Below are positions 20,329-25,078 of a DNA stretch of 61,544 bases, in pieces. The DNA is taken from NCBI GenBank assembly GCA_014874265.1, contig JACWAM010000069.1, forward strand, positions 1 through 61,544. Direction: 5' to 3'. Position 1 is the stretch's first letter. Each line of letters starts with the position of its first letter. Under the pieces are notes generated by a model. That model searched no databases and was not told the origin of the DNA. It was given only the letters and a program-made list of their open reading frames with translations. Origin of the DNA: Thermoleophilia bacterium (lineage in GTDB: Bacteria; Actinomycetota; Thermoleophilia; BMS3ABIN01). The position numbers and the translations under genes were made by a program.

Positions 20329-20592
20329 CCGCGAGGACTGGCGATGGCGAAGGAAGATAGGACACAAATTAATTACATAACAACCAAGGCCCCCGCGGGT
20401 ACCCCAAATTTAATGTTATCAGATTTGACAACGCCGCGCCATACAACTTTGGTTTGATTTTTCGTCGACAAAAGCATTTTTTAAAAGGAGAGCTTGCCGT
20501 TCGGCAAATCCATATCTGCTAATCTATTCCTGATTTAAGCGGCTGATGACATGACGCGGCCGCCTTTTAACACAGGGAGAAGCACTTTTTTC

Positions 20593-22398
20593 ATGTCCGA
20601 CCAGTCTCTGATCCGAAACTTTTCCATTATCGCTCATATCGATCACGGCAAGTCGACGCTGGCCGACCGTATCCTCGAAATCACCAATACAGTCAGCGGC
20701 CGGGATATCACCGATCAGATGCTGGACATGATGGACCTGGAGCGGGAGCGCGGCATCACCATCAAGGCGCAGGCTGCGCGCGTGCTCTATAACGCCGCCG
20801 ACGGGCGCACATACATGCTGCACCTGATTGACACTCCCGGCCACGTGGATTTTTCCTACGAGGTTTCCCGCAGCCTGGCCGCCTGCGAAGGCGCGCTGCT
20901 GGTGGTTGATGCCGCCCAGGGCATTCAGGCGCAGACGCTGGCGAACACGTATCTGGCGATAGACAACAATCTAGAAATTATCCCCGTGCTCAACAAGATC
21001 GACCTTCCGGCGGCCGACCCCGAGCGTGTAGCCGGCGACATCTCCGAGCTGTTTGGCGTGGACCCTGATGATGTCCTGCGCGTGTCGGCCAAGACGGGGG
21101 AAGGCGTCGGTGCGGTGCTGGAGGCGATTGTAAACCGGATTCCACCGCCGGCCGGCGAATCTGACGCACCGCCGCGGGCGCTCATTTTCGACTCTGTTTA
21201 TGATCAGTACCGTGGCGTCATCGCCTTCGTGCGCGTGGTCGACGGAGTCTTTTACAAAGGGGATGAGATCGTCGCCATGGAGCTGGGCACGCGGGCCGAT
21301 GTCGAGGAGGTCGGCTTCTTCTCGCCCAACATGATGCCGGCGCCGTCGCTGGCCGCCGGCGAGGTTGGCTATATCATCACCGGCATCAAGACCGTGCGGG
21401 ACCTGCGTGTAGGCGACACGCTCTCGAGCGCCGGGAGCCGCGCACAGGCGCCGTTGCCCGGCTACCGCGAGGCCAAGCCGATGGTTTTCTGCGGCCTCTT
21501 TCCCATCGATGGCGACGACTACCCGGCGCTGCGTGACGCGCTGGAAAAGCTAAAACTCAACGACGCCGCGTTCAGCTATGAGCCCGAGACCTCGCAGGCG
21601 CTTGGCTTTGGCTTCCGCTGCGGCTTTCTCGGCCTGCTTCACATGGACATCGTCCGCGAGCGCCTGGAGCGTGAGTATGACCTGGACTTGCTGGCAACAA
21701 CACCAAACGTCGAATATAATCTCCAGCTCTCCGACGGCAGCGAGATCGTTGTCCGCAGTCCCGCGGAGATGCCGGATCCGGTCCGGATCGCGCTTGTGCG
21801 CGAGCCATTCGTGAAGGCTGCGGTCCTGGTCCCCGGTGACTTTGTCGGACCGGTGATGGAGCTTTGTCAGGAGCGCCGCGGCGATTTCGAGGACATGCAG
21901 TATCTGTCGTCCAACCGGGTGCAGATTCGTTACCGGCTGCCGCTGGCGGAAATTGTGCTGGATTTCTTCGATCAACTCAAATCGCGCACCAAGGGCTATG
22001 CCTCGCTGGATTATGAAATGGATGGTTACCGGGAAAGCGACTTGGTCAAACTCGACATCATCATTGCCGGCGAGGTGGTGGATGCATTGTCACTTATAGT
22101 TCATCGGGACAAAGCTTTTGCCCAGGGGAAAGCGCTGGCCGAGCGGCTGAAGGCCGAGATCCCCCGGCAGTTGTTTGAGGTGGCTATCCAGGCCGCCATC
22201 GGCAAGAAGATCATCGCCCGGGAGACGATCCCGGCCAAGCGCAAGGACGTGCTGGCCAAGTGTTATGGCGGCGACATCTCTCGCAAGCGCAAGCTGCTAG
22301 AGAAGCAGAAAGCGGGGAAGAAAAGAATGAAGCAGGTAGGAAACGTGGAAATTCCTCAGCGCGCTTTCCTGGCGGTGCTGGATTTAGAAAAGAAATAG
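20593..22398 (+). CDS. lepA: Elongation factor 4
   Basis: [46 protein letters not shown]. Confidence 0.98.
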
Positions 22399-22514
22399 TT
22401 CAAAGTTCAAAGTTTCCTGCATCAGTGAACCTCATGACTCCAAACGGGGCGCGTGAACACTGCCTGATACCATTTTCTTAACTGACAGGGATGATCGTTC
22501 AGTTCTTAAGGCAT

Positions 22515-22592
22515 TATCATCCCGAAGCGCCGCAGGCGATAAAGGATCTGTTTCTCCCAAGATCAAGATTCTTTGCTTCGCCTGAACTGATA
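22515..22592. repeat. Degenerate TGTCAT...ATGACA palindromic REP-like element, copy 2
   Basis: TATCATCCCGAAGCG...AAGGATCT left arm and AGATTCTTTGCTTCGCCTGAACTGATA right arm. Confidence 0.55.
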
Positions 22593-22680
22593 TTTGGGAT
22601 GCGTATTAGCAATCAGCGATCAGTTTTTCAACATTTGGTTGCAAGGTTTTCCAGTTTTGAACTTGTAACTTGGCTTAGGC

Positions 22681-22717
22681 AAAGAAAAAGCCCCTGTCTA
22701 GCCGGCACAGGGGCTTT
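22681..22717 (-). terminator. Intrinsic terminator
   Basis: AAAGCCCCTGT-GCCGGCTAG-ACAGGGGCTTT (11-bp perfect stem) followed by TTCTTT on the minus strand. Confidence 0.85.
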
Positions 22718-22762
22718 CCACTAGGGGGGTGGGGGGTTGAAAGGTTTGGGCACCTTTCTTCC
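22681..22762 (-). ncRNA. Candidate ~80-nt C-rich small RNA
   Basis: Lies between a promoter (22770-22799) and a strong terminator. 5' hairpin GAAAGGU/ACCUUUC, then CCCCCCACCCCCC. 5' end estimated from promoter spacing. Confidence 0.6.
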
Positions 22763-22769
22763 AAGGAGA

Positions 22770-22815
22770 AAGATACCATACCCCCTTAGGTATCGTCAAT
22801 ACCCTACCGTTATTA
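22770..22815 (-). promoter_or_regulatory. sigma70 promoter with CsoR/RcnR-like operator(s)
   Basis: TTGACG (22799-22794), 18 nt, TG-G-TATCTT (22775-22770). The spacer holds ATACC-TAAGGG-GGTAT with a G5 tract; a weaker AATACCCTACCGTTATT site abuts the -35. Confidence 0.65.
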
Positions 22816-22844
22816 AATATCCTGATGGAAAAATTTTGGATAAC

Positions 22845-22853
22845 TGATATAAT
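22845..22853 (+). promoter_or_regulatory. Extended -10 promoter for the GGDEF gene
   Basis: Perfect TG-A-TATAAT. Confidence 0.55.
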
Positions 22854-22975
22854 CAAATTTATCGCCTTAATGCAGGCAAAAAGCCGCTTTTCCCATTGCC
22901 AGGCGGGTTCGAAAACGTCCGCTGGGGCGCGGACTGACAAGCGTGAAAATTGATTATTTCCCAGGGGAACGAGGA

Positions 22976-25078
22976 ATGAACATTGGTTTTGGCAAATCCC
23001 GCCTGATCGGTTACTCGATCATGGGCGCCATCATCGGCGCAGCTATCTTCATAATCCACGACTCGCTGGAGATTTTCTATCCCGAGTCGCACAACTGGAT
23101 TCTTGTCGTATTGATCCCGTTGACTGCCGCCGGGATGGCGTTGATCGCCAGGAACGAAAATGCAGTCTACGAATGGGGCAGCCGCCTTGAAGCGGCGCGC
23201 AAGCGGATAAATGAGTTGATGCTATCCGCGGTCGCCGAAAGGCACTGGGTACAGAGTATTCACGATCCTGCTCTGGTTACATGCTGGCGGGAACTTGAAT
23301 GTGACAAGGAGGATTGCCCCGTTTATGGCAGGGAACACGCCCGCTGCTGGCTGATCGTGGGCACTTATTGCCACGGTGAGGTCCAGGGAAAATTTGCCCG
23401 CAAGATCCATGATTGCCAGCTCTGCCCGGTTTACCGGAATGCGACAGAAGATCCGGTCAGGGAGATTTCCGAAAACTTTATGGCGATGAATTACTTGCTC
23501 AGCGAGCGCGAGGAGCAACTGGAGAGCGCCTACAATGAAGCCCGGGACCGCAGCCAGAAGCTGGCGGGGTTGGTGGCGCTTTCCGAAGCCGCGCTTTCAT
23601 CGGTTCATCTTTCCGAAGTCATGCAAAACCTGCTGGAATCAGCGGCCCAGGTTGTAGGCGCCGATATGGGATTCGTCTCTCTGGCCGGCTCGGCCGGCGA
23701 CGCCCTGGGCACGGCCGCCACATACGGGCTGGCCTCGGGAAGCGCAGCTGAGCTGACGGTCAAGGTGGGTGAAGGCATCGTCGGTCGAGCCTTCGCGGGC
23801 GCTTACATTGCCATCTCCGAAGACCTTACGGTTGACAGCAGGTTTGTGGCGCCTTTTCTAAAGAATGCCAACGTCCACACTCTGATCAGCCTGCCTCTGA
23901 TCGGCAAGCAGCAGCCGCTGGGGATGCTAACCCTCGGCACCTTCTCGCCGCATCATTACTCGGAGGAAGAGAGAGATTCCTTGTGCGTAGCAGCAGACCG
24001 GATCGCGGCGGCAATAGAAAATGTAAAGCTGAATACCGAACTCAGCCGTGACCGGGGTCAGATCGAGCTGATGGAGGTCGTCACCAGGGATCTGGTATCG
24101 CAGGATCATGTCGGCGGCATCTATGATTCATTCATCCAGCATGCGGCGGCGATATTGGATTTTGACCGCGCCAGCCTGGTTCGCTGGCACCCGGAAGCCG
24201 GCGAGATTGAGATTCTGGCGGTCAGCACCAAGGCTCCCAAAACCTGGCTGGCCAAGGGGCTGCGCCTGCCTCTGGGCGCAGCGGCGGTGGGAGATGTGAT
24301 TGAAAGCGGGGTTTCGCTGGTGCGCGATGAAATTACCGGCGATGAATACCAGATTGACAAGTTGCTATTGGAGGAAGGCATTAAATCATGCGTGATCCTG
24401 CCGCTCAGGGTGAAAGGGGCCGTGCTCGGCGCAGTGATGCTGGACAGCTTCCGCGCGCATGCGTTCAGCACCGATGACCTCGAGCTGCTCGAGCCGCTGG
24501 CCCGCCAGCTGGGACTGGTGCTCGATAACGCCCGCCTGCTGGAAGAGGCGAAGCGGTTGTCGCTTGTTGATAGCACGACAGGTTTGTATAACCATCGTTA
24601 CTTCTTTGATGTGGCGTCGCGGGAGATGTCCAGGAGCGTCCGGCATGGACGTCCGGTCGCGGTGATGCTGATCGGCATCGATGGCTTCCAGGAGTTTATC
24701 CGCTCGCGTGGGCGCATCCAGGGAGACCGGCTGCAACAGGATATCGCCGGCAGCCTGAAGGCAAACGTGAGGGGCGCGGATGTGACCGCCCGTTATGGTG
24801 GCGACGAATTTGCCGTGCTGCTGCCGTATCTTGGTGCAGAAAGCGTCGGCAGCATCGACCTGACCTCAGTCGCGAGCCGGATTCGCCGGGCGATCACCGG
24901 CGTTTTAAAGCGGGATGACGGCCAACCGCCGGTTGGCTTGAGCATCGGCGCCGCCGGGTATCCTGATCAAGCCAGCGACACCGCGGGCCTGCTGGAGCGG
25001 GCCGATTGGGCGCTAAGGGAAGCAAGGGCGGGCCATGGGGACTTTGTGCTGGCGGCAAAGCCTTACTGGGACGGCTAG
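22976..25078 (+). CDS. Membrane sensor: 2 TM, two-CW Cys-rich domain, 2 GAF domains, degenerate GGDEF (alternative GTG start at 22943)
   Basis: CWRELEC..CPVY..CWLIVGTYCHG..CQLCPVY; two GAF-like segments; LVDSTTGLYNHRYF and RYGGDEF. Confidence 0.88.
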   Translation: MNIGFGKSRLIGYSIMGAIIGAAIFIIHDSLEIFYPESHNWILVVLIPLTAAGMALIARNENAVYEWGSRLEAARKRINELMLSAVAERHWVQSIHDPALVTCWRELECDKEDCPVYGREHARCWLIVGTYCHGEVQGKFARKIHDCQLCPVYRNATEDPVREISENFMAMNYLLSEREEQLESAYNEARDRSQKLAGLVALSEAALSSVHLSEVMQNLLESAAQVVGADMGFVSLAGSAGDALGTAATYGLASGSAAELTVKVGEGIVGRAFAGAYIAISEDLTVDSRFVAPFLKNANVHTLISLPLIGKQQPLGMLTLGTFSPHHYSEEERDSLCVAADRIAAAIENVKLNTELSRDRGQIELMEVVTRDLVSQDHVGGIYDSFIQHAAAILDFDRASLVRWHPEAGEIEILAVSTKAPKTWLAKGLRLPLGAAAVGDVIESGVSLVRDEITGDEYQIDKLLLEEGIKSCVILPLRVKGAVLGAVMLDSFRAHAFSTDDLELLEPLARQLGLVLDNARLLEEAKRLSLVDSTTGLYNHRYFFDVASREMSRSVRHGRPVAVMLIGIDGFQEFIRSRGRIQGDRLQQDIAGSLKANVRGADVTARYGGDEFAVLLPYLGAESVGSIDLTSVASRIRRAITGVLKRDDGQPPVGLSIGAAGYPDQASDTAGLLERADWALREARAGHGDFVLAAKPYWDG

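Follow-up and report, generated by a model that had tools for sequence, protein, structure and literature searches.

The window, a 61,544-nt contig of a Thermoleophilia bacterium (JACWAM010000069.1, assembly GCA_014874265.1), contains a 544-bp gap between lepA and a gene for a GGDEF protein. The question raised by this locus is whether the minus strand of the gap carries an RNA gene of its own and, if so, what would control it and on what the RNA would act. A reading of the sequence without database searches (the sequence-only reading) had placed there a stand-alone minus-strand transcription unit with no protein gene, and all of its elements were found in the gap at the coordinates listed below. 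The unit is conserved in relatives. We infer that the unit is an independently transcribed, non-coding small RNA (sRNA) gene specific to one actinobacterial family. The sRNA probably forms the RNA branch of a response to reactive-sulfur stress.

The sRNA gene and its conservation

The unit comprises a promoter with an operator-like spacer, a hairpin, a C-rich linker and an intrinsic terminator.

22801-22677, minus strand: whole conserved block, from the -35 hexamer to the terminator
22799-22794, minus strand: -35 hexamer TTGACG (promoter scan), with TTGAC(G/T) invariant in 21 aligned genomes
18 nt, minus strand: spacer between -35 and -10, 16 of its 18 bp taken up by the operator ATACCTAAGGGGGTAT
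22793-22778, minus strand: putative operator of CsoR-family type, ATACCTAAGGGGGTAT, a TAC-X8-GTA dyad with a G-tract
22778-22777 and 22775-22770, minus strand: extended -10 element, TG, then G, then TATCTT (promoter scan), with TGnTAnnnT kept in relatives
22762-22681, minus strand: predicted sRNA of about 77-82 nt, the invariant block from GGAAG to the U-tract
22762-22735, minus strand: hairpin 1, total span (minimum-free-energy and alifold structures)
22758-22752 and 22745-22739, minus strand: arms of hairpin 1, GAAAGGU and ACCUUUC, forming a 7-bp stem with the loop GCCCAA
22736-22724, minus strand: C6-A-C6 tract CCCCCCACCCCCC, largely unpaired, candidate seed
22719-22681, minus strand: intrinsic terminator, with a GC-rich core stem at 22714-22690 and the U-tract CUUUUUCUUU at 22689-22681
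22753-22721, minus strand: GUG micro open reading frame (micro-ORF) MPKPFNPPPP, reading frame not conserved

The 5' end of the sRNA was placed at the invariant GG lying 8 nt past the -10 element, and the 3' end within the U-tract. Hairpin 1 is predicted to be lengthened by GG/CC pairs across a 2x2 AA/AA internal loop, and CCCCACCCCCCUAGU, which lies between hairpin 1 and the terminator, is unpaired in the minimum-free-energy fold as well as in the consensus fold. A promoter scan of 1.5 kb returned 2 sites against 1.3 expected, the sRNA promoter being one of those listed. The 90-nt fold had a z-score of -3.39, and none of 200 shuffled sequences folded equally well. Taken alone, these signals in the window are suggestive, modest rather than compelling. 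Conservation is decisive, and it places the observation well beyond chance.

The comparison covered a family of uncultured, sulfate-reducing Actinomycetota represented by 24 genomes, metagenome-assembled genomes (MAGs) labelled Thermoleophilia or Gaiellales. A DNA search found the block in 22 of the 23 other family genomes, across nine genera and at 85-94% identity; in the farther genera the matches start at the -35 hexamer and end at the U-tract. The covariance model R1, built from 17 distinct sequences, gave exactly one copy (104-115 bits) in 22 of the 24 family genomes. Assembly gaps account for the two genomes without a copy: G009 lacks any lepA, and the relevant contig of G020 stops 15 nt past lepA. 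The lepA match of G020 (L105, G020:C5, 1501-3306) also holds one in-frame TAG, which together with the contig end probably reflects an assembly or sequencing problem beside the homopolymer-rich sRNA. When R1 was run against two sets of 401 genomes, one from the class and one from the phylum, no true match was found outside the family. The best outside matches, at 28-38 bits, combine a hairpin with a terminator, and at least some appear to be the 3' ends of tRNAs. When 185,579 species genomes were scanned for the exact pattern, 19 records matched, all from uncultured Actinomycetota and titled Thermoleophilia, Gaiellales or 'Bacterium BMS3Abin01'. A metagenome collection added 7 further contigs with the same invariant core; in the 8 extra copies hairpin 1 was again invariant.

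The alignment of 21 genomes contains two stretches that are invariant or almost so, TTGACGATACC-N4-GGGGTATGGTA and GGAAGAAAGGUGCCCA..AACCUUUCAACCCCC..CCCCCCUAGUGGAAAGCCCC. Pairwise identity is 0.94 in the RNA body and 0.86 in the promoter, against 0.40 in the 8-nt discriminator and 0.48 and 0.27 in the flanks. Conservation runs from the -35 hexamer to the U-tract; the roughly 8 nt from the -10 element to GGAAG vary freely, as do both flanks. Proteins of the same genomes are far more divergent, with identities of 85% for LepA, 81-92% for a CsoR-family regulator, 69-77% for a sulfide:quinone reductase (SQR) and 40-52% for a DUF5658 protein, the last excepting the nearest relative, G005 (94%).

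No ORF was found at the position of the sRNA in any relative, either in the alignment or in the gene neighbourhoods, and the unit is therefore not a deletion scar. A copZ/copA-type ORF at this place in relatives would, according to the sequence-only reading, have betrayed such a scar, and none of them carries one. The same reading had doubted the meaning of the GUG micro-ORF, with good reason. Relatives differ by indels of 1-2 nt at two places, the loop of the hairpin (CCCAAACC, CCCAAAACC, CCCAATAACC) and the C-runs (5-6 plus 6-8), so that in the 21 genomes the micro-ORF falls in all three frames and its products have 10, 18, 26, 28 or >38 residues, sharing only the first residues MP(K/N). These frame-shifting indels indicate that the micro-ORF is not coding and that there is no conserved peptide. 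An ORF on the opposite strand was rejected on the same indels. With its own promoter, an intrinsic terminator and no conserved ORF, the unit has the gene anatomy expected of a trans-acting sRNA.

Support for an RNA structure comes from the terminator stem, in which two pairs show compensatory changes (AU:14/UA:2/GU:1 and UA:6/AU:4/UG:1). Six double-change cells were counted against 1.4 in shuffles, and the signal collapses in controls with slid partners. Conservation in related MAGs, to which the sequence-only reading had looked for a check, is borne out by the spread over nine genera, and covariation by the terminator stem. A scan of 22300-23100 against Rfam at E <= 10 gave no family match to the sRNA; the snoRNA, ctRNA and NsiR1 matches that it listed are noise, all far below the gathering score.

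The putative operator box and its candidate regulator

The resemblance of the promoter spacer to a CsoR-family operator, proposed by the sequence-only reading, is corroborated by the distribution of the box ATACC-N4-GGGGTA. Exactly two copies of it exist in the 2.0-Mb genome. One is in the sRNA promoter; the other stands just downstream of the -10 element of the genome's single PF02583 (CsoR/RcnR-family) gene, on contig C109. The csoR-family gene that such an operator calls for is thus present, as a single copy. ATACC and GGGGTAT are invariant in the sRNA promoter of relatives, and in all 21 genomes holding the regulator gene its promoter reads TCTTGACAC...GTGnGATAAT followed by ATACCC-N3-(G/T)GGGTA. 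For a 'second weak site', which had been mentioned without coordinates, the only candidate identified, TAGGGTAT, just upstream of the -35 hexamer, is not conserved in relatives.

Across the 24 family genomes there are 67 unique exact boxes, compared with 18 for a reversed-pattern control, and 59 of the 67 stand before four targets:

22 boxes: promoter of the RNA
18 boxes: promoter of the regulator gene
9 boxes: 20-100 nt upstream of an SQR homologue
10 boxes: 75-100 nt upstream of a gene for a membrane protein with a Cys-rich N-terminus and DUF5658
8 boxes: elsewhere

The SQR homologue (E = 4e-77 to PDB 3hyv) has an exact box in 9 of the 16 genomes that carry it. The DUF5658 gene is present in 23 genomes, and in 10 of them it belongs to the box regulon. 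A sulfide-detoxification gene is thus a recurrent member of the predicted regulon, although the SQR box is absent from the window's own genome. The dyad and a G5 tract are present and invariant, and the boxes of all four targets (sRNA, regulator, SQR and DUF5658) share the X8 spacing. Published CsoR-type operators have a TAC/GTA dyad around a G-tract, usually as TAC-X9-GTA (PMC3902906). The fusion of -35 hexamer and box, TTGACNATACCN4GGGGTA, was found once per family genome, in the sRNA promoter only; none of 377 further genomes from the class matched it exactly. The sequence evidence for the existence of the sRNA and for its membership in the regulon is solid, and from the coherence and conservation of this regulon the repressor is predicted to bind the box.

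Several further sites resemble the box. Upstream of the window genome's own SQR gene (C109:57512-56313, minus strand), by about 190 nt, lies a decayed look-alike, AAACCCTTAGGGTTT, which suggests that the site was lost or changed in this genus. In the same genome, near-boxes in which the leading A is missing or the spacing differs, TACCCGCTGGGGTA and TACCCGCAGGGGGTA, stand before a multihaem cytochrome c gene (C86:2488-2501) and before adk (C121:75420-75434). Two genomes from different genera (L059, G013:C37, and L062, G006:C2) have in common the box ATACCCTA(A/G)GGGGTAC in a similar upstream context, CCTAGCG.CAATGGGGGTTTTCC, which suggests one more conserved element. In a sister family, one genome (L119, G122:C7, ~97-130) shows the box-in-spacer design as TTGAAG-ATACCCCAGGGGGTAT-CTTTGGTATCT, about 110 nt before a gene for an MBL-fold hydrolase. 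The DUF5658 protein itself has about 180 residues (L054, G011:C3, 894-1430, minus strand; own genome C26:1449-1985, plus strand) and an N-terminal C-x..-C-x3-C-x2-C cluster, and its gene lies between genes of a ROK kinase and of an LCP-family protein.

The regulator is a protein of 96 residues, encoded in the region C109:176-463, with an RLRR (RLXR) DNA-contact motif. Residues C28, R53 and C57 are invariant in 21 orthologues and form an x-C-R-C motif without a His ligand. In alignments to known structures, the residue at the R53 position is His in InrS and in the CsoR of Geobacillus and of Streptomyces, and Asn in the CstR of Streptococcus pneumoniae. At the W-X-Y-Z positions the protein therefore has the x-C-x-C pattern of a CstR-type sensor and not the x-C-H-C ligand set for Cu(I). 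An x-C-x-C pattern together with sulfide-detoxification genes marks clusters of persulfide sensors, including a large uncharacterised actinomycete cluster (PMC8643695). No copA or copZ lies beside the regulator gene, whose neighbours encode an Fe-S protein and a PBP, and the gene for a CopA-like ATPase in the same genome (C89:24592) has no box upstream.

The regulator looks like a CstR-like, persulfide-type member of the CsoR family. The replacement of His by Arg, the presence of SQR in the regulon and the CopA-like ATPase gene without a box together favour reactive sulfur over copper, and the signal is more likely to be persulfide or sulfide. The sequence-only reading had proposed derepression by metal or stress and had named Cu, Ni, Co and sulfide. 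Its sulfide option is favoured by the x-C-R-C motif and the co-regulated SQR; the metal options are not, given a CopA-type ATPase outside the regulon.

Proposed action, neighbouring genes and alternatives

With moderate confidence, we propose that the locus is an RNA gene under a CstR-like repressor, whose product would act in trans through its C-tract in the reactive-sulfur response. The promoter would be of the sigma-A type, with the operator filling the spacer between its -35 and -10 elements. The repressor, with its x-C-R-C cysteines in the reduced dithiol form, would sit on this operator and block RNA polymerase, and persulfide or polysulfide modification of the cysteines would cause it to leave the DNA. 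The sRNA would then be made alongside the regulator and, in many genera, SQR and the Cys-rich DUF5658 protein. It would most likely act in trans and free of a chaperone, its exposed C6-A-C6 tract pairing with G-rich stretches at ribosome-binding sites (RBSs) in the manner of 6C RNA. In mycobacteria, the C-rich loops of 6C RNA pair with G-rich RBSs without a chaperone, and C-rich single strands are common among the sRNAs of Mycobacterium tuberculosis (PMC6486639). A search by tblastn with approximate queries detected no homologue of Hfq or CsrA. The idea of a CsrA sponge, based on two GGA motifs, was dropped for this reason. A trans-acting C-tract sRNA appears to be the most economical model.

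Target scans were run on the window's own genome, with home-made gene calls and without accessibility terms. The 19-nt complement of the C-tract had no site there at <=3 mismatches, and complements of 9 nt and of 11-13 nt occurred genome-wide at chance level. Ranking of about 6,400 candidate start regions by duplexfold brought intragenic artefacts to the top, such as the zinc-finger codons of MutM, and ranking by contiguous complement on the crude gene calls gave no outlier. Genes with a run of G6 at the RBS include pgsA, nuoK, amt and those for a radical-SAM enzyme, an epimerase and a YeeE-like transporter. The 5' regions of the GGDEF, SQR and regulator mRNAs showed no good complementarity by eye. 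The DUF5658 mRNA is a weak lead as a possible target: wherever the gene has the box (ten genomes), its RBS reads GGGGGGAGAG or UGGGGAGG, and in the window's own, box-less genome GGAGGA.

Several points weigh against this proposal. No convincing target emerged from the own-genome scans, and the YeeE-like sulfur transporter, the one candidate to fit the theme, was rejected as one, being present in only 7 of the 24 genomes with a G-run that is not conserved. About 55 consecutive nucleotides, loops and linkers included, are invariant in about 30 copies; such whole-length invariance exceeds the needs of a short seed and hints at an additional or different partner. All 9 pairs of hairpin 1 are invariant, so that covariation is silent on it, neither for nor against. 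At the level of control, the dyad is TAC-X8-GTA rather than the X9 of characterised operators, and the SQR and DUF5658 genes of the window's own genus have no exact box. The Arg at the His position differs from the Asn of the structurally characterised CstR. Actinobacterial CsoR proteins of the x-C-x-C type are largely uncharacterised, so the signal may instead be copper or another oxidant.

The genes flanking the unit bear on the alternatives.

20551-22398, plus strand: lepA (EF4), convergent neighbour (Pfam)
22943-25078, plus strand: divergent neighbour, encoding a GAF-GAF-GGDEF membrane protein with a Cys7 cluster (Pfam; Cys at residues 114-161)
22826-22853, plus strand: predicted promoter of the GGDEF gene, TGGAAA-16-TATAAT (promoter scan only)

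The promoters of the sRNA and the GGDEF gene stand back-to-back with their -35 hexamers 26 bp apart. The order of convergent lepA, RNA and divergent GGDEF gene is retained in the distant genera g7 and g4, and lepA is also found in the alignment flanks of other genera. In most genera of the 21-genome alignment the sRNA terminator abuts the stop codon of lepA. The approximately 280 nt of non-coding DNA that separate them in the window (22399-22680) appear peculiar to part of its genus and have no Rfam match. The divergent gene had been described as a Cys-rich GGDEF sensor, and its product does contain a membrane-proximal cluster of 7 Cys, CWRELECDKEDCPVYGREHARCWLIVGTYCHGEV...CQLCPVY, at residues 114-161. 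A closely similar cluster, CWEAKQCSKAGCPAFHSTDQRCWLQCGTYCNN...CERCDVF, occurs in a large sensor protein of the same genome (C109:31944, minus strand); the cluster may represent an Fe-S module, or one for sensing redox state or sulfide, that both proteins have in common. Between the sRNA promoter and the GGDEF gene, at about 22816-22860 of the window, most genera keep two ATCAG/CTGAT motifs, spaced by some 21 nt, which overlap the predicted -35 and -10 elements of the GGDEF promoter. A similar motif, CTGATCGCTGATT, occurs again at about 22612-22624. These motifs may be the site of another regulator.

Among the explanations that leave the RNA regulated as described, one holds that it acts chiefly through binding to a conserved protein or to the translation apparatus, as a decoy, sponge or cofactor, and less by pairing with mRNA; the C-tract and the purine-rich 5' end would make protein or ribosome contacts. 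The invariance of some 55 nt in about 30 copies, the lack of a conserved mRNA target and the conserved linkage to lepA speak for it. We nevertheless consider it rather unlikely: no partner was identified, with CsrA and Hfq not found by tblastn, pairing through C-rich single strands is well established in Actinobacteria (PMC6486639), and the target search that came up empty was crude, confined to one genome and without accessibility terms. A related version, in which a riboregulatory arm of a CstR-type regulon docks on an invariant protein or on the translation machinery, with the lepA linkage as a hint, seems quite unlikely. That the same sRNA and repressor serve a metal-stress response, governed by a sensor of copper or another metal, is unlikely as well. 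The box type was first described for a Cu-sensing CsoR (PMC3902906), the two Cys would be able to bind Cu(I), and in most genera a His directly precedes the canonical ligand site. The regulator's best NCBIfam similarity is to RicR, yet its 62 bits are far below the 175-bit cut-off. The canonical His, however, has given way to an invariant Arg, copA and copZ are absent next to the regulator, the CopA-like ATPase gene has no box, and SQR recurs in the regulon.

The remaining explanations deny the RNA its role. If the block acted as DNA, holding sites that control the GGDEF gene and a bidirectional terminator, the transcript would be incidental. The back-to-back promoters, with 26 bp between their -35 hexamers, and the conserved pairing with the GGDEF gene would fit. 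The conserved stretch, however, reaches as far as 80 nt from the GGDEF promoter, with its end exactly at the U-tract, the operator lies about 40 bp from the GGDEF -35 hexamer, and the compensatory changes in the terminator bespeak a constraint at the RNA level, which makes this explanation very unlikely. A functionless relic, left beside the lepA terminator when a CsoR-controlled gene was lost and its promoter and operator stayed, would be expected to decay. In 9 genera, instead, no DNA of the region is better conserved than the segment from promoter to terminator, and none of the relatives carries an ORF there. A relic is thus highly improbable, even though no gene lies downstream and the terminator also closes lepA in most genera. 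Barely credible is a tiny proline-rich peptide encoded from the GUG at 22753. A purine-rich stretch precedes the codon, and the window has an open frame for MPKPFNPPPP, but AAGG touches the GUG without spacing and is sequestered in hairpin 1, and the frame shifts at two indel-prone sites among the 21 genomes, with differing sequences. An sRNA under a CstR-like repressor, acting through its C-tract, is accordingly the reading that we carry into the comparison below.

Comparison with known systems

The proposed circuit has the design of RyhB, PrrF and FsrA, in which a sensor repressor, Fur, has an operator overlapping the promoter of a short sRNA that ends in a terminator and takes the regulon to the post-transcriptional level. 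RsaE and RoxS are redox-controlled sRNAs that use C-rich motifs against G-rich Shine-Dalgarno sequences. The likeness to these systems lies in the design; there is no homology of sequence or structure, and the sensor family and the presumed signal are different. C-rich or C/U-rich motifs pair with G-rich leaders also in CcsR1-4, the 'cuckoo' RNAs of Rhodobacter, and in RepG of Helicobacter, under stress or with phase-variable G-repeats. These RNAs come from unrelated phyla, have other architectures and hold their motifs in hairpin loops, and no Rfam match links the present sRNA to them.

To our knowledge, reactive-sulfur sensing by CsoR/CstR, SqrR and BigR has so far been described only as transcriptional control of protein genes, and Actinobacteria are without Hfq and ProQ. 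If the proposal is true, no earlier sRNA would have been under the control of a sensor of the CsoR family, and this one would be the first, adding a post-transcriptional layer to a persulfide regulon as RyhB does for Fur. The host lineage lives by sulfate reduction, and its management of sulfide is continuous. The docking explanation, if true, would tie translation directly to reactive-sulfur stress in actinobacteria that reduce sulfate. Although the organisms are uncultured, a 96-residue repressor, a 16-bp operator and an 82-nt RNA make a compact set for heterologous study. Model R1 and the box pattern can be used to annotate the RNA and its regulon in MAGs of the family.

On the side of the regulator, the closest systems are the CstR regulons, such as cst with sqr in Staphylococcus aureus and cst in Streptococcus mitis and Enterococcus faecalis. 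Shared features are the PF02583 domain, the x-C-x-C pattern, RLXR, an SQR in the regulon and a regulator gene that is apparently autoregulated. The box found here, ATACC(C)-N-GGGGTA(T), is almost identical to the cst operator of S. mitis, ATATACCCTTATGGGGTATAT (PMC8643695). Differences are a dyad shorter by 1 bp, Arg instead of Asn at the former His position, and a regulator gene that is solitary rather than heading a cst operon. The best-conserved member of the regulon is here a non-coding RNA. A limited literature search found no report of an sRNA in a CsoR/CstR regulon, which is not proof of absence.

On the side of the RNA, the nearest counterpart is 6C RNA (RF01066). It shares an actinobacterial host, a length of about 80-100 nt, a stand-alone gene, an intrinsic terminator and exposed runs of at least 6 C, and its likely logic, chaperone-independent G-C pairing with G-rich RBSs (PMC6486639), would be the same. 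The sequence-only reading had noted a 6C-like character with a different architecture, and Rfam agrees: the 6C covariance model (gathering score 47 bits) has no match in 22300-23100 at E <= 10. In the 24 family genomes at E <= 1 it gave none save a 25.9-bit match elsewhere in G006, and none in the class. The C-runs of 6C RNA lie in the loops of two hairpins, whereas here a single hairpin is predicted besides the terminator, both C-runs lie in one linker, and the hairpin loop, GCCCAA(A), has only three C. Genomic context and promoter control differ as well, and 6C RNA is phylum-wide, whereas the sRNA described here is confined to one family. It would thus add a second, structurally different C-tract sRNA to the Actinobacteria. 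Taken with its operator and regulon, it appears to represent a new, family-specific sRNA family within a CstR-like regulon, with a mode of action that would parallel that of 6C RNA.

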